From: a bacterium
GTDB taxonomy: Bacteria; Zhuqueibacterota; Zhuqueibacteria; Oceanimicrobiales; Oceanimicrobiaceae
Assembly (NCBI GenBank): GCA_037446635.1
Contig: JBBIIG010000005.1
Span: 32,001-96,000 of the forward strand
DNA: 64,000 bases
Reading direction: 5' to 3'
Shown: piece after piece, positions 9,441-37,654 of the stretch
Layout of the letters: every line of letters begins with the position of its first letter
Numbering within the stretch: the first letter of the stretch is position 1
The notes under the pieces: generated by a model
What the model was told of the DNA's origin: nothing
What the model saw: the letters and a program-made list of their open reading frames with translations, nothing else
Database searches by the model: none
Program-made: the position numbers and the translations under genes

Positions 9441-9474
9441 AAATTCGAGATTTTATTTGAACTTGGAGCACTAA

Positions 9475-9780
9475 ATGATTTTCGGCATCACACATCACGA
9501 TAAAAATCGACACGTCAACAAAGAAGCATTTTTGAATTTGGCGCCGGCGCGGTTGGCTGGCAAAGCGGTGAACAGTCTCATCCAGCAAAACATCGCGCTG
9601 GGAACATCCGAGATGAACGTCCCTACTATTGATGATGGCGTGGGACTCGCCATCGATGAGATAGATAAAGATCCTACACTGTTTGCAACGGTGTATTTGG
9701 ATTGTTCGAATGAAAACACAGTCAGAGACTGTGTGTTGGATCTGAATTGGATACGATTTTATTTGAACTTGGAGCACTGA
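9475..9780 (+). pseudogene. Truncated duplicate of the first 59 codons of the downstream asparagine-synthase-like gene
   Basis: 9449-9650 is a ~90% identical direct repeat of 9755-9956, including the RBS region. Confidence 0.9.
9714..9742. repeat. AACACAGTC-AGA-GACTGTGT hairpin element (second copy at 38794-38820)
   Basis: Reverse complement matches 38794-38820 apart from a 2-nt indel. Confidence 0.75.
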
Positions 9781-11721
9781 ATGATTTTCGGCATCACCCA
9801 TCACGATAAAAATCGACACGTCAACAAAGAAGCATTTTTGAATCTCGTACCGGCGCGGTTGGCGGGCAAAGCCGTTAGCAGTTTCATTCAGCAAAATATC
9901 GCGCTGGGAGCTTCGGAGATGAACGTCCCCACGATCGATGACGGCGTGGGACTCGCGTTCAGCGCGGATAAGAAAATCGTGGTGGCGGCATCGGGTAATA
10001 TTTTCGCCGCTGCTGAGTTTGCCGGAAGCAAAAATGAACCCGTCGCGCAAACCATTTTGCGGGCGTATCAGTCCGCGGGTGAAAACGGCTTCAAACATCT
10101 TAACGGACAATTTGCTGCCGCCATCTGGGATTCGACGCAAAACAAATTTCTGCTGGTGCGCGATCACCTCGGCTTCGAGCCACTGTTCTACTACTGGGAT
10201 GGCCAGACCCTCATCTTCAATTCGTTTCTCAGAGATTTGATTCGCCACGAGAATGTGCGCCGCGATTTCAATCATCGCGCCATCCGCAATTACCTGTTGT
10301 TCAATTACAATCCCGGCCTCGAGACGTTTATTCAGAATGTGCGAAAGGTGCGGCCGGGGCACGTGCTGGTTTTGGAGAATGGGAAGGTGGAGGAGAGGAG
10401 GTATTGGAGGCTTTCATACAATACCAGCGGCAACACCCCCCCTAGCCCCCCCTCAAGGGGGGGAATGGAAGTGGGTTCGAAGGGGGGAACTCTAGAAGAT
10501 TACAAAGCGGAGCTACTGCGGCTGACGCGCGACGCCATTCGCATCCGCACGCAGGAGACGGCGTCCGACCCCGGCGCGTTCCTCAGCGGCGGCATGGATT
10601 CCAGCTCGGTGGTGGGACTGCTGAGCGGACTCACCGAGCGGCCCATCCACACTTTTTCCTTTCGCTGCGAGGGCAAGTACGTGGACGAGTCCTACTACGC
10701 GCGAGTGATGGCTAACCATTACAAAACTCGCCATAACGAAATTCCGTTCACCGCCGACGAGCTGCTCAACTTTGAAAAAATGGCCGAGTGGATGGATGAG
10801 CCGCTGTGCGACATCGGCGTGGAGCTGGGGTCGTTCATCATGGGGCGCGCGGCGCAGGGCCATGTTCAGTACATCCTCACCGGCGATGGCGGCGACGAGC
10901 TGTACGCCGGCCACCCGGTGTATCTCGCCGATCAAATGGCCGCGGCGTTCGACAAAATTCCGGCGCCGCTGCGCGCGGGCGTGCTTGGCATCGCGGGGCT
11001 ACTGCCGGATTCCGATAAAAAGAAAAGTCTGTTGGTGAAAGCGCGGCGCTTCGCGTATAGCTACGGTTTCCCCGCGGAGCTGCTGAGCAATCGCTGGCGC
11101 ATTTATTACACCGGCGCGGAGCTGGCGCGTCTTTGCACTCCGGAGGTGGTGCAGCAATTCGGCGATCTCGACTCGTACCGCGATATCACCGATTTGTACG
11201 CCGACGCCGACGGCCCCGACCATCTCAGTCGCGCGCTTTATGGCGATTATCAGACGCTGGTGCATTTCCACGTTGACCGCCTGCGGCTGACCCGCGCATG
11301 GGGCATCGAGGCGCGCTTCCCGCTGCACGATTACCGGCTCGTCGAGTTTTCGGCGACCATTCCGTCGGCGCTGAAGATTCGCCCGCCTGCCTCAGGCCTC
11401 TGGCGGGCAGGCAACTCGCAGGTGAAATACATTCAGCACGAAGCGCTGGCCGGCGTGCTGCCCGATGAAATCGTTTTTCGCAAAAATAAAATGGGTCACA
11501 ATGTGCCGATGAAAAACTGGATGCGGGAAACTACCGTGTTCCGCGATTTGATGAACGACGTACTCTCCGAAACTGCGGTGAAGCGGCGCGGCATGTTCAA
11601 CGCGCCGTTCGTGAAACAGATGCTGGATCTCCATCTCCGAAAGAAAAAGGACTACTCCCATCGCCTCTACGCCCTCGTGATTTTGGAACTCTGGCTCAAG
11701 AAAAACATCGATAATCGATGA
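9781..11721 (+). CDS. Asparagine synthase-related protein lacking the N-terminal Cys; carries two in-frame palindrome insertions
   Basis: LNGQFA, RDHLGFEPLFY, LSGGMDSS, TGDGGDELYAG, EARFP; begins MIFGIT. Confidence 0.9.
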   Translation: MIFGITHHDKNRHVNKEAFLNLVPARLAGKAVSSFIQQNIALGASEMNVPTIDDGVGLAFSADKKIVVAASGNIFAAAEFAGSKNEPVAQTILRAYQSAGENGFKHLNGQFAAAIWDSTQNKFLLVRDHLGFEPLFYYWDGQTLIFNSFLRDLIRHENVRRDFNHRAIRNYLLFNYNPGLETFIQNVRKVRPGHVLVLENGKVEERRYWRLSYNTSGNTPPSPPSRGGMEVGSKGGTLEDYKAELLRLTRDAIRIRTQETASDPGAFLSGGMDSSSVVGLLSGLTERPIHTFSFRCEGKYVDESYYARVMANHYKTRHNEIPFTADELLNFEKMAEWMDEPLCDIGVELGSFIMGRAAQGHVQYILTGDGGDELYAGHPVYLADQMAAAFDKIPAPLRAGVLGIAGLLPDSDKKKSLLVKARRFAYSYGFPAELLSNRWRIYYTGAELARLCTPEVVQQFGDLDSYRDITDLYADADGPDHLSRALYGDYQTLVHFHVDRLRLTRAWGIEARFPLHDYRLVEFSATIPSALKIRPPASGLWRAGNSQVKYIQHEALAGVLPDEIVFRKNKMGHNVPMKNWMRETTVFRDLMNDVLSETAVKRRGMFNAPFVKQMLDLHLRKKKDYSHRLYALVILELWLKKNIDNR

Positions 11722-28212: not shown

Positions 28213-28280
28213 TCGTTCCAAAAGCAGGATCATAATGAAAAGAACTCTCGTTCGAATTACTCCGTCGGTTGGGTGAAGAC

Positions 28281-29729
28281 ATGCTCGGACAAGCAACCAT
28301 TCTATTATTGATAAGCCAAGTGGTGTTCCTGATCTCCGGCTACGTCATCAACGTTGGCCTCGCGCGGATGCTCGGACCCGAGGGCTTCGGCACGTTCGGC
28401 GTGGTGATGTCGTTTCTGTTTGTGGCGCACCTGTTCGTCATCACCGGCATCCCGATTGCGTTGCAAAAATTCGTCGCCGAAAACATGGATGCCGCACGCC
28501 TGCTCGTGCGCAAAACTCTACCGGTGCATTTGCTCAACTCGCTGGGATTCTTCATTTTGTTCTGGTGCATCGCGCCGCTGATTGCCTCGTGGTTCGACGA
28601 TCCGAGTTTGCAATTCTATCTGAGAATCGCGGCGTTCGACATCATCTTCTACGGGCTGTACAAATATTATCAGAGCCTGCAAAACGGACTGCACCAATTT
28701 GGCCGGCAGACACTCGGCGCCATCGCGTACGCGATCGCCAAACCGCTGTCGATTTTCGCGCTAGTGCTTTCGGGATTCTCCGTCACCGGCGCGGTGCTCG
28801 GCAACACGCTCGGCGCGCTGGGCGGATGGCTCGGCGGACTGCTGCTGGTGAAGATGCCCGAGATCAAAGCGAAGTTGGAAGAAATTCAATTCTTCCGTTT
28901 CGCGTTCATCAACGTGTTTTATTACGTCGGGCTGCAGCTGCTGTTCTCGGTGGACATCTGGTTTGTGAAATATCATTTGAGCGATGTCGAAGTGGGGCAG
29001 TACGTGTCGGCGTCCAGCATGGCGAAGATCCCGTACTTTTTGTCGCTGGCGATTTCCTCGGCGCTGATGCCGGTGATTTCGCGCGCCACCAAAACCGGCG
29101 ATGAGAAACGGGTGCGCGACGTCACCGCCATCACGCTGCGCTACTGGCTGATGCTGCTGTTCGCGATGATCGTGGTGATTGGCGCTACCGCCGTGCCGCT
29201 GATGACGCTCTTTTTTGGCGAGCAGTACACCGCCGCGGGCCCGATACTCGCGGTGCTGTTTGCGGGCATCGCGCTCATCACTTTTTTTGCGGTGATGAAC
29301 ACGATTTTGATCATGCGCGAGCAATTGAAATCGTGCTTGATCGGCACCGGCTCATTGATTATTTTGCACGTCGCTGCCAACGCGATTTTGGTGCCGAGGT
29401 ACGCGGGATTGGGCGCTGCGCTAGCCACGCTAATCGTCGGCGTCGTGGGCATTGTGGTGGTGGGAACGCTGCTGCTGCGCAATGTGCGAGTGGTGATGCC
29501 GCCGCTCTCCGCCGCACGCACGGTTCTCTCCGGTGCAGCGGTACTGGCGCTGGCGTACTACTTCCCGATTTTGGATCACTACTTAATCGCCAAATGCGCG
29601 TTTTTGCTGATGCTGTTTGTCGGGGTGTTGTTTGGGATTCGTGAGTTGAGCTTTTCGGATATTGTACGCTTTCGATCAATTCTTATTCCGATCAATCCCT
29701 CTCCTTCTTCGCTTTCGAAGGGTTTATGA
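28281..29729 (+). CDS. Oligosaccharide flippase (Wzx/MOP family)
   Basis: LARMLGPEGFG, VGQY, LVPRYAGLGAALAT, many TM segments; start codon uncertain. Confidence 0.9.
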   Translation: MLGQATILLLISQVVFLISGYVINVGLARMLGPEGFGTFGVVMSFLFVAHLFVITGIPIALQKFVAENMDAARLLVRKTLPVHLLNSLGFFILFWCIAPLIASWFDDPSLQFYLRIAAFDIIFYGLYKYYQSLQNGLHQFGRQTLGAIAYAIAKPLSIFALVLSGFSVTGAVLGNTLGALGGWLGGLLLVKMPEIKAKLEEIQFFRFAFINVFYYVGLQLLFSVDIWFVKYHLSDVEVGQYVSASSMAKIPYFLSLAISSALMPVISRATKTGDEKRVRDVTAITLRYWLMLLFAMIVVIGATAVPLMTLFFGEQYTAAGPILAVLFAGIALITFFAVMNTILIMREQLKSCLIGTGSLIILHVAANAILVPRYAGLGAALATLIVGVVGIVVVGTLLLRNVRVVMPPLSAARTVLSGAAVLALAYYFPILDHYLIAKCAFLLMLFVGVLFGIRELSFSDIVRFRSILIPINPSPSSLSKGL

Positions 29730-29773
29730 TAAGAGCGAAAATGCAATAAGCTTTTTGTGATTTGGAGTAGTTA

Positions 29774-30328
29774 ATGGACTGGAGTGACTTGATTAAACAA
29801 AACTTTGTTACTGTTATAGCAGTTCTCGGTACCCTGTTAGCTGGATTGGGAAGTGGCTTCTTAGCCTCACTTATTTCAAAAAAGTTTGAGTTAAGAAAAG
29901 CTCGGTTCGAATGGCAAAAAGAATATCAAACTCAAAACCTTGTTCAACCCATTATATCATATATTGACGAGACATTTGCATTAATGGAAAATATTTATTG
30001 GACTGTAATGGAAATCAAATGGCAGGTTAGTGAACACAAAGCGGAAGACATCGCAGATGAGATATTGGTCAAAGAGCTTGATAAAAACAGAAACAGATTG
30101 ATTTCATTTAGAGAAAAGAAGAGACTAATCAAAGTACGTGTCAGGTGTTTCTATGATGATGAACTTAACCATGCCTTTGATGAGTTTATGAAAAAGTATG
30201 GTGAGTTTGCAAATCTTAACTTTTTGAATAATACATCTATCATGTTCAATAAAATACAGGAGGCAGTACCATTTGCAACGACAATATTCTCTAGATTGAA
30301 TTATGGACTAGAGAAACTACTTAATTGA
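29774..30328 (+). CDS. Hypothetical protein with N-terminal TM helix (AT-rich)
   Basis: 184-aa ORF, RBS GGAG, low GC. Confidence 0.7.
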   Translation: MDWSDLIKQNFVTVIAVLGTLLAGLGSGFLASLISKKFELRKARFEWQKEYQTQNLVQPIISYIDETFALMENIYWTVMEIKWQVSEHKAEDIADEILVKELDKNRNRLISFREKKRLIKVRVRCFYDDELNHAFDEFMKKYGEFANLNFLNNTSIMFNKIQEAVPFATTIFSRLNYGLEKLLN

Positions 30329-30346
30329 ATTGTGGCGTCCGAAACA

Positions 30347-30637
30347 CTAAATACGCGATCGCCAGTTTTTAGGATCTCGATGAAGATGCATAACAGCAGT
30401 GATGAGAATGGAGTCAGGTCGGATTTGATAAATCACCCCGTATGGAAAACGCTTGAAGATGCAGCGCCGGGCGCGTTTGGAAAGTGGCGGCCACGCTTTA
30501 GGAAATTGGACGATGCGTTCCAGAGTACGTTTGACCTCTACTTCAAACTCATCGCCGAGGCCTTCGCGTTGGTCGTTATAATAATCAATCGCTTCCTGCA
30601 ATTCGATTTCAGCGACGGTGAGAAACTCGATCTTCAC
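30347..30637 (-). CDS. Type II toxin, RelE/ParE family
   Basis: AEIELQEAIDYY, RFPYGVIY, AVMHLHRDP..W. Confidence 0.92.
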   Translation of the reverse strand: MKIEFLTVAEIELQEAIDYYNDQREGLGDEFEVEVKRTLERIVQFPKAWPPLSKRARRCIFKRFPYGVIYQIRPDSILITAVMHLHRDPKNWRSRI

Positions 30638-30642
30638 CGAGA

Positions 30643-30867
30643 CTACTTCCTTCGATTCTTATCGAATACTCGGTGGGCAGGAATCGCTGCTATTTCTCCG
30701 CGCTCGTATGCATCGATGCGATCTTCGACTTCCTCCGCCCACATCTCATCGATTGATTTCGATTGTGGGAATTCGAAGCTCGACAGCAGGCGGTCAATTA
30801 ATTCCGCGCGTTCGTCGGGCGGCAAGGTTAAAGCTTGGGAGAAAATTTGTTCAGCTTGTTCAGACAT
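30643..30867 (-). CDS. Addiction module antitoxin (TIGR02574-type)
   Basis: LPPDERAELIDRLLSS, WAEEVEDRIDAYERG; upstream of the RelE toxin. Confidence 0.9.
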   Translation of the reverse strand: MSEQAEQIFSQALTLPPDERAELIDRLLSSFEFPQSKSIDEMWAEEVEDRIDAYERGEIAAIPAHRVFDKNRRK

Positions 30868-30899
30868 GACGACTGACCTTTCGTTAAAAATGCGTTGAA

Positions 30900-30928
30900 A
30901 TAATACAATTGTACGTTTGAAAAATCAA
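30900..30928 (-). promoter_or_regulatory. Sigma70-like promoter of the TA operon
   Basis: Minus strand TTGATT-17 nt-TATTAT. Confidence 0.6.
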
Positions 30929-30946
30929 GACATTTATTCTGACAAA

Positions 30947-31024
30947 TTAACCGCAAAGTTCGCTAAGATGCCGCAAAGAAAACCATGGCGATCTTTGCGC
31001 AACTGTTGCGTTCTTTGCGGTTAA
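30947..31024. repeat. AACCGC...GCGGTT inverted-repeat element
   Basis: TTAACCGCAAAG...CTTTGCGGTTAA. Confidence 0.85.
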
Positions 31025-31055
31025 AGAGATAATCTAAAATGAGATTTTGAAAACT

Positions 31056-31127
31056 ATGAAACTTGCAATCATGGGCATCCGGGGCATCCCGGCAAACTAC
31101 GGTGGATTTGAAACTTTCGCGAATTGA
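31056..31127 (+). pseudogene. Stub 1: first 22 codons of the GT4 gene at 34552
   Basis: MKLAIMGIRGIPANYGGFETFA then N-stop; 64/66 nt identical. Confidence 0.95.
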
Positions 31128-31181
31128 GCTTTATTGAATAATTTCTTATTTTCATCAACTAAAAGTGGATCAGGATTTCTC

Positions 31182-31856
31182 ATGAAGCCGCAACTTTCGA
31201 TTCAGCATCTGATTGACGAAGCAAAAATCTTTTGCGAAATGGAATCGAAATACGAAAACAAAGAGTTGTTCGGGATTACGGATGGGAAGGCCGTCGGGAC
31301 TTTCATCGAGCACAAATTTCAGAATCATCTTGCAGCGAAGTATGAATACCAAAAGGGTTCTTCCGCAAACGGAATCGATTTCCCATCGCGATCATTAAAC
31401 ACGGATGTGAAAGTTACATCGGTGAAGCAGCCGCAGTCGTCCTGTCCTTTCAGAAATGCGCGGCAAAAAATTTATGGGTTAGGGTACAATCTTTTGATAT
31501 TCGTTTACGAAAAGAATGATGATCCTCGTAGAGCCACCGCAACGCTTGATTTCCTAAACTGCTCTTTCATTCATCAACATCGCACGGGCGATTTCCAAAT
31601 CACCAAAGCTTTGCGACAAATGTTGGATAACGAGGCCAACGCTGATGACATCATCGCCTATTTGAGTGATAGAAACTTACCTACCGACGAAATAGCTCTC
31701 AACGCGCTCGCCGAAGAAATCTTGACAAATCCACCTGAACAGGGATATTTGACCATATCCAACGCATTGCAGTGGAGATTGCAATACGGACGAATCGTGA
31801 AACTTGCTGAGTCAGTGGATGGAATTGTGAAAATCATAAACAAGCCAATCTCGTGA
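31182..31856 (+). CDS. Putative type II restriction endonuclease
   Basis: TDGKAVGTFIEH, GIDFP..TDVK (PD-D/ExK-like), QPQSSCPF; coupled to the MTase by a TGATG overlap. Confidence 0.8.
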   Translation: MKPQLSIQHLIDEAKIFCEMESKYENKELFGITDGKAVGTFIEHKFQNHLAAKYEYQKGSSANGIDFPSRSLNTDVKVTSVKQPQSSCPFRNARQKIYGLGYNLLIFVYEKNDDPRRATATLDFLNCSFIHQHRTGDFQITKALRQMLDNEANADDIIAYLSDRNLPTDEIALNALAEEILTNPPEQGYLTISNALQWRLQYGRIVKLAESVDGIVKIINKPIS

Positions 31857-33616
31857 TGAACAAATTGGAATATCAGTTTCACCAAAAACGCATCGAGTAT
31901 CTCAAACAGCGCTTTTCCGAAGTAACGGATTTTAGGGAAGCCAATGAGATCATCTCCGCGATTTCCGGGTTGATGGATTTCTTTCCAGAACAAGCTGATT
32001 ATCTGTCTTTTCTGGAATTACTCAAGAGGCAACGGCTTGTTGTCCGCGATGAAGAGCGGCGCGAGTACGGTGATTTTCAAACGCCTGACCACCTGACTGA
32101 CGAAGTTTGCACATTCATAAAAGGAGACATTCAACCGAGGGTTTTGATCGAACCCACTTTCGGAAAAGGTTCATTTATCCTGTCCGCGTTAAAAAATCTG
32201 CCATCTTTGAAAAAAATATTTGGAGTCGAGATTCACGAGCAGTACGTGTGGCATTCCAAGTTTAGAATCCTTGAATATTTTATTGATCATCCCGACTCCA
32301 ACCGGCCTGAAATTTTTCTGTTTAATGCCGATGTGTTCGATTTTGACTGGAAGGAAATTCGTAATTCTTGCGAAGAACCCTTGTTGATTTTTGGAAATCC
32401 GCCGTGGGTGACAAATGCAGAATTGAGCTCGCTGGGGTCAAGCAATATTCCTCGGAAATCAAACTTCAAACGACATAAAGGCCTCGATGCCATCACGGGA
32501 AAAGGCAACTTTGATATCGGCGAATTTGTAGTGCTCACCATGCTCAATGAATTTAGCAGCATGTCCGGAAGTATCGTTATGCTTTTGAAAAATTCAGTTA
32601 TAAAAAACCTGGTCTATGATTTGAGAAAAACAAACTATAAGATTTCTAATTTGAGATCATTTAGTTTTGATGCAAAAGAACATTTCGGTGCCTCCGTTGA
32701 AGCTTCGCTTTTCACCTGCGATTTCAATCAGACCCGATCCAACTTGGCATGTTCCGTTTATAGTTTGTCTAAACCAGCAGTCGTACAAAACTCGTTTGGG
32801 TGGGTGAAAGACAAGTTTGTCTCGAATATTGAGTTTTATCAAGCCAGCTCAAAGTATGATGGAGTATGTCCTTTTGAATGGCGTCAGGGCGTCAAACATG
32901 ACAATAGCAAGATTTTCGAGTTGGAAAAAGTTGGCGGTAAAACGTACAACGGGTTTGACGAGGAAGTCTGTGTTGAAGAAGAAAGAATCTTCGGGATTGT
33001 CAAAAGTTCGGACATAAAAGGTCAAATCATAAGCAGGCCAAGAAAGTACGTTATCATAACTCAAACTTATCTTGGGGAAGACACGTCAAGGTTGTCTGAA
33101 AAATTTCCGATGCTTTTCAACTACTTGAATTCTAAGCGAGAATTTCTGGAAAATAGAAAATCGTCGATTTACGCTGGCAAACCGGAATTTTCGATTTTTG
33201 GAATCGGAGAATATTCTTTCAAGCCGTTTAAGGTAGCCATTTCTGGATTATATAAAACCCCATCCTTTACTTTGATATTGCCCGAAAACAATAAACCTTT
33301 GATGCTCGATGATACTTGTTATTTTTTGAGCTTTGACCAGCTTTCCGATGCGGTGTTCACGTGGTTGCTGCTGAAGGATAGACGAACCCTCGATCTTTTG
33401 AAGTGCATCATTTTCGAGGATGCCAAACGTCCCTACACGAAAGAGATTTTGATGCGGATCGCTCTTGATGAAATCGCCTCCGATGCTGGCTATGATATGA
33501 TTGCAACTCAGCTTGAGGAATTGCAAAAGCAATTTGAGATTGGATTGGACTATGAGGTTTGGGAGAAGTTTCTGGATAAAATGAAGCGCCATCAGGAGCA
33601 GCTTGCTTTGTTTTAA
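31856..33616 (+). CDS. SAM-dependent amino (N6/N4) DNA methyltransferase
   Basis: GDFQTP, EPTFGKGSF (motif I), GNPPW (motif IV). Confidence 0.9.
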   Translation: MNKLEYQFHQKRIEYLKQRFSEVTDFREANEIISAISGLMDFFPEQADYLSFLELLKRQRLVVRDEERREYGDFQTPDHLTDEVCTFIKGDIQPRVLIEPTFGKGSFILSALKNLPSLKKIFGVEIHEQYVWHSKFRILEYFIDHPDSNRPEIFLFNADVFDFDWKEIRNSCEEPLLIFGNPPWVTNAELSSLGSSNIPRKSNFKRHKGLDAITGKGNFDIGEFVVLTMLNEFSSMSGSIVMLLKNSVIKNLVYDLRKTNYKISNLRSFSFDAKEHFGASVEASLFTCDFNQTRSNLACSVYSLSKPAVVQNSFGWVKDKFVSNIEFYQASSKYDGVCPFEWRQGVKHDNSKIFELEKVGGKTYNGFDEEVCVEEERIFGIVKSSDIKGQIISRPRKYVIITQTYLGEDTSRLSEKFPMLFNYLNSKREFLENRKSSIYAGKPEFSIFGIGEYSFKPFKVAISGLYKTPSFTLILPENNKPLMLDDTCYFLSFDQLSDAVFTWLLLKDRRTLDLLKCIIFEDAKRPYTKEILMRIALDEIASDAGYDMIATQLEELQKQFEIGLDYEVWEKFLDKMKRHQEQLALF

Positions 33617-33660
33617 AAAATTGCAAGTCTAAATTTGGGAAAAGAAAATTCTCAGTGACT

Positions 33661-33764
33661 TGTCATTCCGAACGCCGACGCCCTTTGTCGGCGGAGGAAT
33701 CTGGCGGCGCACAGATCGTGCTCAACCAGATTTCTCGCTTCGCTACGCTCAGCTCGAAATGACA
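33661..33764. repeat. GTCAT...ATGAC palindromic element
   Basis: TGTCATTCCGAACGCCGACG..GAGGAATCTGG / CCAGATTTCTCG..CGAAATGACA. Confidence 0.85.
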
Positions 33765-33820
33765 CTTCAAAGAGATTGGCTATTAATGAAGAATATTTTT
33801 TGAGGACTTGTTCGGAAAAG

Positions 33821-33934
33821 ATGAAACTTGCAATCATGGGCATTCGGGGTATCCCGGCCAACTACGGTGGATTTGAAACCTTCGCGGAGCAGCTCGTGTC
33901 ACGGCTGGTTTCGGCAAAGTCACAAAAAAAGTAA
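33821..33934 (+). pseudogene. Stub 2: first 30 codons of the GT4 gene at 34552
   Basis: MKLAIMGIRGIPANYGGFETFAEQLVSRLV then unrelated SAKSQKK-stop. Confidence 0.95.
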
Positions 33935-33954
33935 ACTGAAAATGAGGTGATAAA

Positions 33955-34185
33955 ATGCACGAACGTATTTCAATCGACCCAAAAGTCTGCCACGGCGAAG
34001 CCTGCATAAAAGGTACGCGCATTCCCGTGCACCAAATCGTTCGTATGTTGGCCAATGGCGACACAATCGAGGGGCTGCTGAAAGCCTATCCCTCAATTGA
34101 GCGCGAAGATATTCTCGCGTGTTTGGAGTATGCAGCAACTCTTGCAGAAGAACAAGTCGCGCCTATTGAATCGTTGGCAGAGTGA
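33955..34185 (+). CDS. DUF433 family putative antitoxin
   Basis: RISIDPKVCHGEACIKGTRIPV, YPSIEREDILACLEYA. Confidence 0.92.
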   Translation: MHERISIDPKVCHGEACIKGTRIPVHQIVRMLANGDTIEGLLKAYPSIEREDILACLEYAATLAEEQVAPIESLAE

Positions 34186-34535
34186 ACATGAAAATTTTTG
34201 TTGACGAAAACATACCGTCAATAACCGTCGCCGCCCTTCGCCACATGAAACACGATGTGACGGATATTCGCGGAACGCCGGACGAAGGCATGTCCGATGA
34301 GGACTTGTGGAAAAAGGTTCAGAAAGAAGGACGGCTACTCATTACGACAGACAAAGGCTTTTCGCATCATCGCAAAGAATCCCATCATGGAATTTTGATT
34401 GTTCGTTTGAGGAAACCGAACGAGATCAAAATTCATCAACGGGTGATGCGAGCGATGAACCAATTTAAAGAAAAAGAATGGTGCGGGTTGTTAGTTGTGA
34501 TGCGCGATTCGCTGCAAAGTACTTGGAAGAAGTGA
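34182..34535 (+). CDS. DUF5615 family PIN-like putative toxin
   Basis: IFVDENIP, SDEDL, LITTDKGF, HGILIVRL. Confidence 0.9.
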   Translation: MNMKIFVDENIPSITVAALRHMKHDVTDIRGTPDEGMSDEDLWKKVQKEGRLLITTDKGFSHHRKESHHGILIVRLRKPNEIKIHQRVMRAMNQFKEKEWCGLLVVMRDSLQSTWKK

Positions 34536-34551
34536 GGAATTAAATCCAACT

Positions 34552-35646
34552 ATGAAACTTGCAATCATGGGCATCCGGGGCATTCCGGCAAACTACGGTG
34601 GATTCGAAACTTTCGCGGAGCAGCTTGCGCCGCGGCTGGTGGAGCGCGGGCACGAGGTGACGGTGTACGGCCGCTCCAACACCATCCAATACGACGGCGA
34701 ATTTTACAAAGGCGTGCGTCTGGTGATTTTGCCGACCATCGCGCATAAGTATTTGGACACCGTCGCGCACACCTTCCTCTGCGTGCTGCACGCGCTTAAA
34801 GAACGCTACGACGCCATCCTCATCTGCAACAGCGCCAACGCCTATTGCGCCTTCATCCCGCGACTGGTGGGCACGCCCGTGGCCATCAACGTTGATGGCC
34901 TCGAGTGGAAGCGCGCCAAGTGGAACAAGTTAGGTCGCTGGTTCTATCTCATCTCTGAGCGGCTGGCCACCTTCACCGCCAACGAGATCGTCACCGATGC
35001 CCGCGAGATCGAAAAGTACTATCTCGAAAAATTCAACAAGCGCTCGACCTTCATTCCCTACGGCACACCCATCGGCAAAGTGGAAACGAAGGACGCGCTC
35101 GACAAATTTGGCCTACAGCCGAATGGCTACGTGCTGTACGTGAGCCGGTTGGAGCCGGAGAACAACGCCCATCTCGTGGTGAAGGCGTTCGAGCAGGTGA
35201 AGACCAATTTGAAGTGCGTCATCGTCGGCGACGCGCCCTACAACGGCGAGTACATTCAGAATTTGAAAAAGACCAGAGATCCGCGCATCATTTTTACGGG
35301 TTACGTGTTTGGACAGGGCTACCGCGAGCTGCAGTCCAACGCCTATTTTTATGTGCAAGCCACAGAAGTGGGCGGCACCCATCCCGCGCTTTTGGAGGGC
35401 ATGGGACACGGCAACTGTGTGTTGGCCAACGATGTCCCCGAGCACCGCGAAGTTTTGGGCGACGCCGGCGTCTATTTCAATAGCAAAAAAAATGGCGAAC
35501 TGGCAGAGAGGATGCAGCATCTGCTGGATCGTCCCCACGAAGTGGCGAAGTACGGTGAGAAAGCCGTGGCGCGCATCCGCGAGTTTTACACGTGGGAGAA
35601 GGTGACGGAGGCGTACGAGTCGTTATTCTCTAAACTGAGTCGGTAG
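34552..35646 (+). CDS. Glycosyltransferase family 4 (DUF1972-type N-terminus)
   Basis: GIRGIPANYGGFETF, NVDGLEWKRAKW, RLEPENN, EVGGTHPALLE. Confidence 0.95.
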   Translation: MKLAIMGIRGIPANYGGFETFAEQLAPRLVERGHEVTVYGRSNTIQYDGEFYKGVRLVILPTIAHKYLDTVAHTFLCVLHALKERYDAILICNSANAYCAFIPRLVGTPVAINVDGLEWKRAKWNKLGRWFYLISERLATFTANEIVTDAREIEKYYLEKFNKRSTFIPYGTPIGKVETKDALDKFGLQPNGYVLYVSRLEPENNAHLVVKAFEQVKTNLKCVIVGDAPYNGEYIQNLKKTRDPRIIFTGYVFGQGYRELQSNAYFYVQATEVGGTHPALLEGMGHGNCVLANDVPEHREVLGDAGVYFNSKKNGELAERMQHLLDRPHEVAKYGEKAVARIREFYTWEKVTEAYESLFSKLSR

Positions 35647-35670
35647 GCGATTGCGGCGATTTTCACAACG

Positions 35671-35887
35671 TGGAGTAATGGAGCTTGGAGTGGTGGAGTA
35701 ATGGATTGATGGATCAATGGATCAATGAAATGAAAATGCAAAGGGCAGATTTCAAAATTCAAAATTTGGTTTCACGTCTCACGTCTCACAGTTCACGTTC
35801 CAAAACTCCATCACTCCATCGCCCCGTCGCTATGCGCCATGCACATTCATCCATTGATCCAGTAATCCATTAATCCATTAATCCAAC
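35671..35887. repeat. Concentric stack of octamer/heptamer inverted arms
   Basis: TGGAGTAATGG..TGGATTGATGGATCAATGG ... TCACGTCTCACGTCTCAC ... ACTCCATCACTCCA ... TCCATTGATCCAGTAATCCATTAATCCA. Confidence 0.8.
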
Positions 35888-35903
35888 CAGAAAGAGGGAG
35901 GCC

Positions 35904-37337
35904 ATGCAGAGAACCATTCTAATTTTGCTTACACTTTTCATCCCGCTAAGTTTTGGCTTGTTGACCGCGCAGCCGGCGACAAATCAGCAAAGCCTTGTGT
36001 TGATTCTCGATGCTTCCGGTTCGATGTGGGAGCAAATTCAGGGCCGGCATAAAATTACCATCGCGCGGCAGGTGTTGAAAGATTTGGTTGCGGGACTGCC
36101 GGACGATTCGGAAATTGGGCTGGTCACGTACGGCCATCGCAGCAAAAGCGATTGCGCCGATATCGAGACGCTAGCGCCGCTCGCCAAAATCAACAAAGCC
36201 GATCTCATCTCCAAAGTGGAGGCGATCAACCCCCTTGGCAAAACTCCCATCACCGATGCCATCAAGCAAGCGTTTGAGCTGGTAAAAAGCCGGGCTGATG
36301 AAACCACCATCGTGTTGCTCAGCGACGGCCTCGAAACCTGCGGCGGCGATCCGTGTCAAACCGTGACCGCGGCGAAGAAAGCTGGCGCGAATTTTATCAT
36401 GCACGTCATCGGGTTTGATGTCGGCAAAGTTGACGCCTCGCAGCTCGAGTGCACTGCGCAGGCTGGCGGCGGACTCTACCTCAGGGCCAGCAACGCCGAT
36501 GAGTTGTCCGCTGCATTGAATCAAACGGTCGAAGCGCCAGCGATTCCGAACAGCCGCATCTCGGTGAAAGCCGTTGCCGACGGCCAGCTCACCGATGTTT
36601 CCGTGCACGTTTACAAAGCCGGCACCAAAGAAGAAGTCGCCGGGGGGCGCACTTACAAATCCCCCGACACCAACCCGCGGCTGTTGCCAGTGGCGGCCGG
36701 GGCGTACGACATCGAAGCGATCGCCATTGGCTTTCGCGGCAACGTGTCGCGCACATTCAAAGGCGTGCAGGTTGGCGAAAATGCGACCGTCGAAAAGGTG
36801 GTGGATTTCAGCACCGGCGAGCTTTCGATTCTGGTGACGCGCAATGGCCAGCTTTCCGACGCCACCGTTGGCGTTTACGTTGCCGGTACGAATGAAAATG
36901 TTGCCAGCGGCCGGACCTATAGATCTGCCAACTCCAATCCCAAAGTGATAAAAATCACTCCGGGCGAATATGACGTTACGCTCGGCTCGGTTGAAATCGA
37001 GGGCAAGCCGGAGCGGAAAATCACCGGCGTTGTGGTCGAACCGGGAACGCGCGTCGAGCACAAAATTGAATTCGACAGCGGCACGTTGCGAGTTGGCGCG
37101 GTGCAGGGCAGCACATTAGTAGATGCCACGGTCACAGTTTACGACAAAGCGAAACGCCAGCAAATCGCGGCGGGCCGAACTTACACCAATGCCAACTCCA
37201 ACCCGAAGACTTTTGAAATGCCCACCGGCGAATTTGTAGTGGTGGTGAAGCCGGTAAAGCCGGCGGGCAAATCGGCGCGGGAGATCAGCGTTGTTGTTCG
37301 CAAGGGAGAAACGGTGGAGCAGAAGGTGGAGTTTTAG
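35904..37337 (+). CDS. Secreted VWA-domain protein with three tandem beta-rich repeats
   Basis: Signal peptide, LDASGSM MIDAS, SDGLETCGGDPC; three GRTY..NP repeats. Confidence 0.9.
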   Translation: MQRTILILLTLFIPLSFGLLTAQPATNQQSLVLILDASGSMWEQIQGRHKITIARQVLKDLVAGLPDDSEIGLVTYGHRSKSDCADIETLAPLAKINKADLISKVEAINPLGKTPITDAIKQAFELVKSRADETTIVLLSDGLETCGGDPCQTVTAAKKAGANFIMHVIGFDVGKVDASQLECTAQAGGGLYLRASNADELSAALNQTVEAPAIPNSRISVKAVADGQLTDVSVHVYKAGTKEEVAGGRTYKSPDTNPRLLPVAAGAYDIEAIAIGFRGNVSRTFKGVQVGENATVEKVVDFSTGELSILVTRNGQLSDATVGVYVAGTNENVASGRTYRSANSNPKVIKITPGEYDVTLGSVEIEGKPERKITGVVVEPGTRVEHKIEFDSGTLRVGAVQGSTLVDATVTVYDKAKRQQIAAGRTYTNANSNPKTFEMPTGEFVVVVKPVKPAGKSAREISVVVRKGETVEQKVEF

Positions 37338-37654
37338 TGCAGACCGCACGGCGCATAGTGCACAGCGCATAGTGCATAGCGCAGAGTGTAAAAGCGCAAT
37401 CCAGAAATTCAATGATACTTTGATTACGTTTAATCAGCTCTAGCGAATTGTCATTCCGAATCCCGACGCTTTTCCGCAAAGCGGATCGGCTCCGCCGATT
37501 GCCGGGTGAGGAATCTGGCGGCGCACGGAAACGTCATTACACACAATCCGTTTTGAGCGAATCGCTGAATTCATTCTGCGTCGGATTTCTCGACTCCGCG
37601 GCGCTAGCAAATGACAATTATTTCGATCTGCGTTAATCTGCGTCATCTGCGTCT
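37337..37654. repeat. GCGCATA heptamers, nested GTCAT element (37449-37616) and ATCTGCGT arm
   Basis: GCGCATAGTGCACAGCGCATAGTGCATAGCGCA; GTCATTCCGAATCCCGACGCTTT[TCCGCAAAGCGGATCGGCTCCGCCGA]TTGCCGGG; ATCTGCGTTAATCTGCGTCATCTGCGT. Confidence 0.8.

Follow-up and report, generated by a model that had tools for sequence, protein, structure and literature searches.

The 64,000-nucleotide window analysed here (positions 32001-96000 of contig C5) belongs to a bacterial metagenome-assembled genome (MAG), labelled G000, of 4.64 Mb in 110 contigs and 97% completeness. Behind a large polysaccharide gene cluster, the window holds an array in which the start of a DUF1972/GT4 glycosyltransferase gene (hereafter GT4) is encoded three times, twice as a short stub and once as the beginning of the intact gene (Table 1). 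In NCBIfam, the intact gene scores best against a Cps2T-type rhamnosyltransferase, with 189 bits where the cut-off is 500. In G000, the flippase is parted from GT4 by a low-GC zone of 4.8 kb, with 35-48% GC over 29600-34600 against 52-61% in the flanks. Two cassettes separate the copies, one of 2.7 kb carrying a restriction-modification (RM) pair and one of 0.65 kb carrying DUF433 and DUF5615 genes. The latter two overlap by 4 nt and by their family domains qualify as a predicted type II toxin-antitoxin (TA) pair, the DUF5615 gene ending 16 nt before the GT4 ATG. The zone also contains a ParE/antitoxin pair as well as a 184-aa open reading frame (ORF), both omitted from the initial annotation of this DNA. 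In what follows, L055 denotes a metagenome contig of a sister lineage, U' the 180 nt ahead of stub 2 in the window, and U the counterpart of U' ahead of GT4 in L055.

Table 1. Coordinates of the array and of the features around it in the window.
Feature	Position	Strand	Basis
Large polysaccharide gene cluster, ending with the flippase	1-29729		Pfam
Polysaccharide flippase (Polysacc_synt)	28269-29729	+	Pfam
184-aa ORF, no family match, low GC, absent from L055	29774-30328	+	profile searches, GC, blastn
ParE toxin	30347-30637	-	Pfam
Unstab_antitox antitoxin	30643-30867	-	Pfam
Imperfect palindrome, 33-nt arms, 76% complementary, of a dispersed family like repetitive extragenic palindromes (REP-like)	30947-31024
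Stub 1: 11 upstream bases and GT4 codons 1-22	31045-31121	+	100% over 77 nt to L055 intact start
Joint of stub 1 and insert, flippase-like 17 nt	31116-31132	+
Type II restriction endonuclease, 240 aa	31134-31856	+	NCBIfam NF052465, 343 bits (cut-off 290); PADLOC REase_II 297 bits
Adenine methyltransferase, 587 aa	31853-33616	+	PADLOC MTase_II 404 bits
U', native upstream region of GT4, including a REP-like element	33641-33820	+	blastn 75% over 299 columns including stub 2; alignment
Stub 2: GT4 codons 1-30	33821-33909	+	89% identity to copy 3
DUF433 gene	33955-34185	+	87.8 bits
DUF5615/PIN-like gene	34182-34535	+	DUF5615 71 bits, PIN_10 37.6 bits
Intact DUF1972/GT4 glycosyltransferase, 364 aa (copy 3)	34552-35646	+

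The initial annotation had placed three direct copies of this gene start, beginning with ATGAAACTTGCAATCATGGG, at 31056, 33821 and 34552, with the RM genes between the first two and the DUF433/DUF5615 genes between the last two. Sequence comparison recovers the three copies in direct order (31056-31121, 33821-33909 and, intact, 34552-35646), profile matches confirm the cargo, and a genome-wide search finds no copies besides these in the 4.64 Mb. Stub 1 comprises 66 nt and is followed by AATTGA, while the homology of stub 2 extends over 89 nt and its ORF runs on to 33934. Homology between the copies thus ends on the 3' side at nt 66 for stub 1 and nt 89 for stub 2; it begins at the ATG, or at -4 for copies 1 and 3, and its upstream limits lie at -11, about -180 and -4. 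Against copy 3, stub 1 shows the two synonymous differences that had been annotated (97% identity). In stub 2 the two non-synonymous changes of the initial annotation were found again, whereas its eight synonymous ones became seven on recounting (10 base differences in 9 codons, 8 of the 10 at third positions). Of the 12 base differences that separate the two stubs from copy 3, 10 fall on third codon positions. In the comparison with other genomes of the class, the stubs share 60-64 of 66 bases with the gene of G000 itself and at most 58 of 66 with that of any relative. Counted by eye over 89 bases, the differences from L055 number 10 for stub 2 and 5 for copy 3, so the window holds three alleles of the GT4 start.

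The origin of these alleles is best approached through L055. In relatives, the genes are ordered epimerase/GFO, flippase, GT4 and carA, and L055 is 87-93% identical to G000 at the nucleotide level over the epimerase, flippase, GT4 and carA (92.4% for GT4 alone), with a single GT4 start. Stub 1 and the 11 bases preceding it form a stretch of 77 nt that matches the intact GT4 start of L055 at 100% identity. U' and stub 2 align, in turn, to the region immediately ahead of and into the GT4 gene of L055, and stub 2 therefore appears still to stand behind the native upstream region of the gene. Because stub 2 keeps about 180 nt of that region, the insert after stub 1 would have carried a whole chromosomal context and not just a cassette. 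At the joint of stub 1 with the RM insert, 17 nt (31116-31132) resemble positions 29638-29654 of the flippase, with 2 mismatches that are both synonymous in the flippase frame (RELSF); the flippase of L055 matches the same stretch at 16 of 17 bases, and shuffling gives a chance expectation of 0.11 such matches per window. The hexamer TTCGCG both closes stub 1 and opens the flippase-like piece. These features are suggestive of an RM insert whose first part is a fragment of the flippase end, attached to GT4 codon 22 through an overlap of 6 nt. The 'replacement 5' end' of the initial annotation does not look like a dedicated arm of the cassette but like a portion of a larger piece of chromosome from a relative, in which a flippase fragment, the RM genes, the native upstream region and the gene start follow one another. 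On the other side, the blastn alignment of the flippase to L055 ends at 29674, and its last ~55 nt or ~18 codons (29675-29729) have no counterpart there, against 93% identity in the rest; the variable zone thus begins inside the 3' end of the flippase.

Genomes of the class were searched with a pattern back-translated from RGIPANYGGFET, the same pattern read backwards serving as control and matching in none of the 125 genomes. The GT4 pattern occurs in 108 of them, with three copies in G000, two in G018 (both full-length and on different contigs) and one in the remaining 106. This tally includes the unpublished genomes G117 and G121, with one copy each; without both, the gene is found in 106 of 123 genomes, and the conclusion is independent of them. 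No stubs at the GT4 gene were detected in the other 124 class genomes, nor in 20 upstream regions of relatives. The flippase directly adjoins GT4 in 8 of these 20 loci (7 by tblastn ends and L045 by ORF end), long ORFs lie between the two genes in 11, and a contig end intervenes in one. The initial annotation had predicted an accretion site targeted through a conserved protein motif, with stubs and variable cassettes across related genomes. This picture was not upheld, as stubs exist here in only 1 of 125 class genomes, the sister contig has none, and unrelated gene ends in G000 are similarly scarred (see below): the GT4 gene is not a special target. Genes of the RM pair are adjacent in 9 of 11 distant MAG loci, and direct repeats around the same module were seen in none of the nine distant loci holding both genes. 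A conserved motif at the right end of the cassettes was also considered and dropped, there being no repeat of the 28 nt before copy 3, for which neither a meaningful second copy in the genome nor more than an 11+8-nt echo in L055 (E 0.13) was found.

A genome-wide search for duplicated gene ends, which the initial annotation had proposed, shows that the array is one case among many. Self-comparison of G000 was used to extract local low-copy direct repeats (66 pairs), and Pfam was run on 114 ORFs; this revealed 15 further loci with a duplicated gene terminus of 73-443 nt at 80-98% identity. The duplicated end is the 3' one in 12 cases (ALAD, malate dehydrogenase, TetR, a CCG/Fer4 protein, FtsX, LptD, a Pyr_redox protein that is Lpd-like, a DEAD helicase, an Eco57I-like protein, glutamate dehydrogenase, PNP_UDP and a 169-aa ORF) and the 5' one in three (M20 peptidase, PPDK_N and AcrB). 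The cargo consists mostly of pairs of small ORFs, with Pfam matches above cut-off that include BrnT, ParE, DUF433/DUF5615, TumE, DUF2283, DUF2442 and UPF0150. As at GT4, three copies enclosing two different cargos were seen for both the Lpd-like gene and the helicase gene. The lengths of the stubs vary (66 and 89 nt at GT4; 153 and 127 nt at the Lpd-like gene), and since they differ there is no fixed crossover point. Low-copy direct repeats bracket 8 of 34 TA hits, from four TA families, as compared with 4 of 400 random positions, and three of those four fall in loci already listed.

This recurrence bears on the reliability of the array itself as assembled in the MAG. A metagenome assembler might have threaded in series the different genes that co-existing strains carry ahead of GT4, and G000 is indeed a MAG of 110 contigs, while contigs of relatives break at such repeats: in G001, of the same genus, the contig ends 98 nt past the Lpd-like gene (79% identity), and one copy in G012 lies on a 2.75-kb contig. 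Each stub-to-insert joint is, on the other hand, a unique sequence that must exist in the reads, the three copies differ from one another, and the longest exact run common to two of them was counted at 32 nt, which is below the final k-mers that assemblers usually employ. With the same anatomy at 15 other loci and in the independent assembly L055, an artefact of this kind is highly improbable.

Related structures were also noted in other lineages. In L055 (8307-12830), the last ~130 nt of carA recur five more times behind the intact gene and separate DUF2283, PIN_3 and DUF6883/DUF4926 cargo. The starts of the final three copies are spaced at 257-303 nt; only a REP-like element was seen there, and no listed ORF of at least 50 aa lies wholly between them. 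Stubs resembling the carA 3' end, accompanied by REP-like elements, are also present in G000 far from carA (C7:19690-20593). Directly past them, C7:22866-23634 shares 96% identity with the end of L055, so that the carA end of G000 has been rearranged or has received a large insertion. In G012, of a different genus, the last ~165 nt of the Lpd-like gene occur three times (L079, that is G012:C34:44000-51335, and also L075). Each copy is followed by a paralogous gene of ~450-500 aa with a type IX secretion system (T9SS) tail, in tandem 1.65-kb units that are 84-88% alike, and then comes a PIN_2 pair.

The codon positions at which stubs and intact genes differ are informative about the time at which the copies diverged. 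Over 17 stub/intact pairs from 13 loci, the differences number 57, 39 and 173 on codon positions 1, 2 and 3 (21/14/64%), with 146 synonymous and 80 non-synonymous codons, although some pairs (the short stub on C28, C1 and C61) look decayed. The GT4 orthologues of G000 and L055, taken as a benchmark, differ at 13, 10 and 62 sites, whereas for an identical duplicate whose stub drifts we calculate an expectation of roughly 29/27/44%. As the observed proportions are much nearer the orthologue pattern than the expectation for decay, most of the divergence of the stubs probably arose while both copies worked as genes in different lineages. The third-position bias, the match of stub 1 to the intact L055 allele and the native upstream region of stub 2 together support the proposal of the initial annotation that the stubs are former functional gene starts and not merely decayed target duplications. 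The competing idea of a true long target-site duplication, in which some unknown insertion process makes staggered breaks 60-440 nt apart that are filled in, so that the copies start out identical and the stub then decays, draws on the near-identical pairs (C46 at 98%, C61 at 96% and stub 1 at 97%). It can also appeal to the repeats of published RM insertions, reported by Furuta et al. (PMC2853133) to match the empty target at 43-47 of 46-47 bases. A third-position excess of 173 in 269 is, however, far above what the decay of one copy would give. In addition, the sister allele is reproduced exactly by stub 1 and not by the working copy, stub 2 represents a third allele, 10 of 89 bases away from L055 and from copy 3 each (by eye), and the insert carries U' and a piece of the flippase, all of which makes such a duplication rather improbable.

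Enzymes that might have built the array were sought in the window and in the rest of the genome. None of the 61 window ORFs scanned matched a recombinase or transposase family, in line with the initial annotation, which had reported no integrase; neither an integrase nor an insertion sequence (IS) was thus found in the window that might account for the boundaries, and integron integrase (intI) was likewise not among the matches. The genome as a whole has three PF00589 recombinases (on C1, C9 and C37), no PF00239 and four PF01797, none of them on C5. It has been shown that integrase-borne elements restore gene ends both at the 3' side (e14 in icd) and at the 5' side (Rac in ttcA), according to PMC6379469. 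By analogy, integrase-less elements with attachment (att) sites over the gene start might accrete through a recombinase acting in trans, as in the arrays of cis-mobilizable elements (CIME) and integrative and conjugative elements (ICE), or as decayed relatives of e14 and Rac. The shared query base at which three carA stubs of L055 begin, and the occupation of the Lpd-like 3' end in two genera, would agree with this mechanism. It is nevertheless quite improbable, given the lack of a recombinase in the window, three tyrosine and no serine recombinases in a 97%-complete genome against at least 16 different target genes, stub ends that differ (66 versus 89 nt) and no common motif seen at five aligned sets of joints or at the GT4 joints. 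The palindromic elements that the initial annotation had noted before the stubs are present ahead of stub 1 (30947-31024) and stub 2 (~33650-33770), with none ahead of copy 3. They are REP-like repeats, with 13 and 11 matches in the genome (blastn-short), and were rejected as recombination sites, being generic dispersed repeats of which none was seen at the aligned Lpd-like or glutamate dehydrogenase stubs.

Among the explanations weighed here, we give about an even chance to homology-anchored import of DNA from related lineages, which would have left the array as a stack of recombination scars without a dedicated mobile element having produced it. On two occasions, DNA of a related lineage with other genes ahead of its GT4 would have recombined into the recipient, with a homologous crossover inside the conserved GT4 gene at the right end and an illegitimate join a few dozen bases inside the recipient GT4 start at the left end, the route being homology-facilitated illegitimate recombination (HFIR) or some one-arm event equivalent to it. 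The anatomy, the allelism of the copies, the lack of a recombinase in the window and the recurrence in the genome are observed, whereas donors, pathway and succession of events are inferred. A first event would have brought in the flippase-end fragment, the RM pair, U' and a GT4 start, leaving recipient codons 1-22 as stub 1; a second would have brought in the DUF433-DUF5615 pair with another GT4 start, leaving codons 1-30 as stub 2. The layout fits an accretion from left to right, each insert supplying a new 5' end as the initial annotation had proposed, and the incoming DNA keeps the gene whole: an intact 364-aa GT4 stands behind the last insert, and the stubs are allelic. The same process may have marked at least 15 other gene ends in the genome, mostly around TA cargo, and scars would lie at gene termini because only joints that leave a whole gene survive selection. 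Homologues of ComEC and DprA are present in G000, which permits transformation without demonstrating it; the same searches match in 10 and 11 of 14 control genomes, and both proteins are present in most bacteria.

Several observations weigh against import from relatives as the source of the scars. At 3' ends, no more than ~12 nt part the outer edge of the repeat from the stop codon in 8 of 10 cases; at GT4, its distance to the ATG is 0-11 nt. Random illegitimate joints do not predict such pinning, so that the extra assumption is needed that the cargo already abutted the gene in the donors. The DUF433 homologue of L055 (87% at the nucleotide level) lies upstream of U, with DUF5615 cut after ~10 codons, a position that the simple two-step history leaves unexplained. 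Neither a donor haplotype nor an intermediate (RM-U'-intact GT4, or P1-intact GT4, where P1 is the segment that precedes stub 1) was found among the sequences compared. The flippase fragment is just 17 nt long. The pairs of the codon-position test were picked by hand and by eye from the 66 low-copy repeat pairs, with ORFs called by a crude script. Finally, the bias of the cargo towards TA and RM genes hints at a cargo-driven process, for example one involving double-strand breaks as Furuta et al. suggest.

A rival explanation is a Campbell-type cycle, in which a cassette circle with one gene-end copy forms via the flanking repeats and re-enters a related genome by a single homologous crossover within that gene end, so that the duplication arises anew, in the 'virus-like life cycle' proposed for RM units. 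Its end structure is the same as that observed, the repeats are allelic, and invasion, amplification through repeats and release are proposed by Furuta et al. (PMC2853133). Moreover, the tandem triplet of Lpd-like 3' stub and cargo gene in G012, with units 84-88% alike, and the last carA stubs of L055, which recur every 257-303 nt with no listed ORF of at least 50 aa wholly between, are in its favour. The ~180 nt of native upstream DNA with stub 2 and the flippase fragment with the RM insert speak, by contrast, for a linear chunk of chromosome and not for a minimal circle, and the same text states that release lacks experimental evidence (PMC2853133). We regard the cycle as unlikely.

Insertion with long target duplication has been catalogued for RM genes since 2000, reportedly by Nobusato et al., and its mechanism is poorly understood. 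As defined by Furuta, Abe and Kobayashi (2010, PMC2853133), it concerns RM pairs flanked by repeats of 46-423 bp that often span a start or stop codon, are unique in the genome and enclose an insert of less than 20 kb, with low GC and no mobility gene. On this definition, the route for stacking defence genes that the initial annotation had thought might be undescribed already has a published counterpart, including the repeats over start and stop codons (PMC2853133). Both R and M genes lie in the first cassette, the second being a TA pair; the inserts of 2.7 and 0.65 kb are small and come without a recombinase or transposase family among the 61 window ORFs; and the repeats of 66 and 89 nt exceed the 30 bp required and are of low copy number, with three copies in the genome. 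An empty site is seen in relatives, which are other species and not strains, with one copy in L055 and in 106 of the 125 class genomes. Identity between repeats is 100% to L055 and 97% to copy 3 for stub 1, and 89% to both for stub 2. The GT4 locus differs from the published insertions in its two stacked cassettes among three copies, in having a TA pair as the second cargo (TA cargo also dominating the other G000 loci), in copies that have diverged as alleles, with a bias to synonymous changes, and are not near-identical duplicates, and in a joint that bears a fragment of a neighbouring gene with a 6-nt overlap. For TA genes, no description of insertion with long target duplication turned up in the literature searched, from which most subscription journals fell outside. 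New here are inserts stacked at a 5' end, TA cargo that predominates throughout one genome, a signature of selection in the repeats and the joint with a neighbour-gene fragment.

Other systems share parts of this anatomy. The prophages e14, which sits in icd at its 3' end, and Rac, found at the 5' end of ttcA, bring substitute gene ends into Escherichia coli and leave the displaced end as a pseudo-copy (163 bp for icd), and Rac changes the N-terminus of the product (PMC6379469). The likeness lies in the substitute end and the stub that is kept; the difference is that these prophages possess an integrase and defined att cores, whereas the inserts here are of 0.65 and 2.7 kb with variable stub lengths. 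As regards integrase-mediated elements in general, the substitute gene end is present at GT4, a recombinase in the element was not found and a common crossover core was not seen. In streptococci, integrase-less CIME accrete in tandem at the att site of ICE. There too, gene-end direct repeats delimit successive inserts devoid of their own integrase; those repeats are, however, short att sites for an ICE integrase in the population, and no such enzyme or fixed core was found here. Integrons resemble the array in holding small promoter-less defence and TA genes, in one orientation behind a fixed point, but the separators here are protein-coding copies of a gene start and not attC hairpins, and contig C5 has no PF00589 match that could represent intI. 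HFIR is said to have been studied in Acinetobacter and pneumococcus. According to PMC3240628, it is defined by one end of the incoming DNA entering through homology and an illegitimate join of the other at a short overlap. Both the conserved anchor in GT4 and the TTCGCG joint with the flippase fragment at 31116-31132 fit this definition. The divergence from L055 is even along GT4, and neither a breakpoint nor a homologous joint is visible inside the gene. HFIR is also a pathway defined in the laboratory, and the duplication of the anchor end, the stacking and the TA/RM bias are outside its description.

This locus bears on the question of how small modules for defence and addiction move when neither transposases nor integrases take part, and the diverged, purifying-selected alleles of gene ends point to import from relatives with the conserved gene as anchor. 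If the pattern holds in other genomes, stubs at gene termini would offer a cheap marker for dating and tracing gene gain free of recombinases, and would help to explain why TA genes are often found directly behind housekeeping genes. A bolder proposal, which we hold to be somewhat unlikely, is that TA and RM cassettes of this lineage themselves spread without recombinases, hitch-hiking with a fragment of the adjoining conserved gene that serves both as a portable homology arm and for repair of the target. Were this true, conserved gene termini would be stackable landing pads (three copies at GT4, six of carA in L055 and three of the Lpd-like gene in two genera), and the scars would not be passive but would reflect a general, self-propagating flow of defence and addiction genes in uncultured bacteria.

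A number of further features of the window and its relatives deserve mention. Between GT4 and carA (35628-37498) lies a gene with a VWA domain (35904-37337) flanked by REP-like elements, where L055 has 173 nt; in many relatives carA stands closely behind GT4. The 257 nt directly behind GT4 (35647-35903) hold an inverted repeat of TGGATTGATGGATCAATG-like units (35685-35886) and give 151 blastn-short matches in the genome, including a tandem array on C98. In the non-coding region upstream of DUF433 in L055 (4900-5200), three pieces ending in ATTGAAA(C/T) were seen by eye at a spacing of ~115-140 nt, which may be degenerate repeat ends of some kind. Local repeat clusters also surround weak Y1_Tnp matches, similar to IS200 or to REP-associated tyrosine transposases (RAYT), at C2:204510-205427 and C35:26175-27218, probably a different phenomenon from the gene-end stubs. 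The public run X1 (share 0.07) yielded two short contigs that are 100% identical to the ParE/antitoxin genes, and elsewhere only scraps. Within the polysaccharide cluster, the start of an asparagine-synthase-like gene (9781-11718) is tandemly duplicated over 202 nt at 90% identity (copies at 9449-9650 and 9755-9956), leaving a 101-aa ORF without a family match (9475-9777) and no cargo between the copies.

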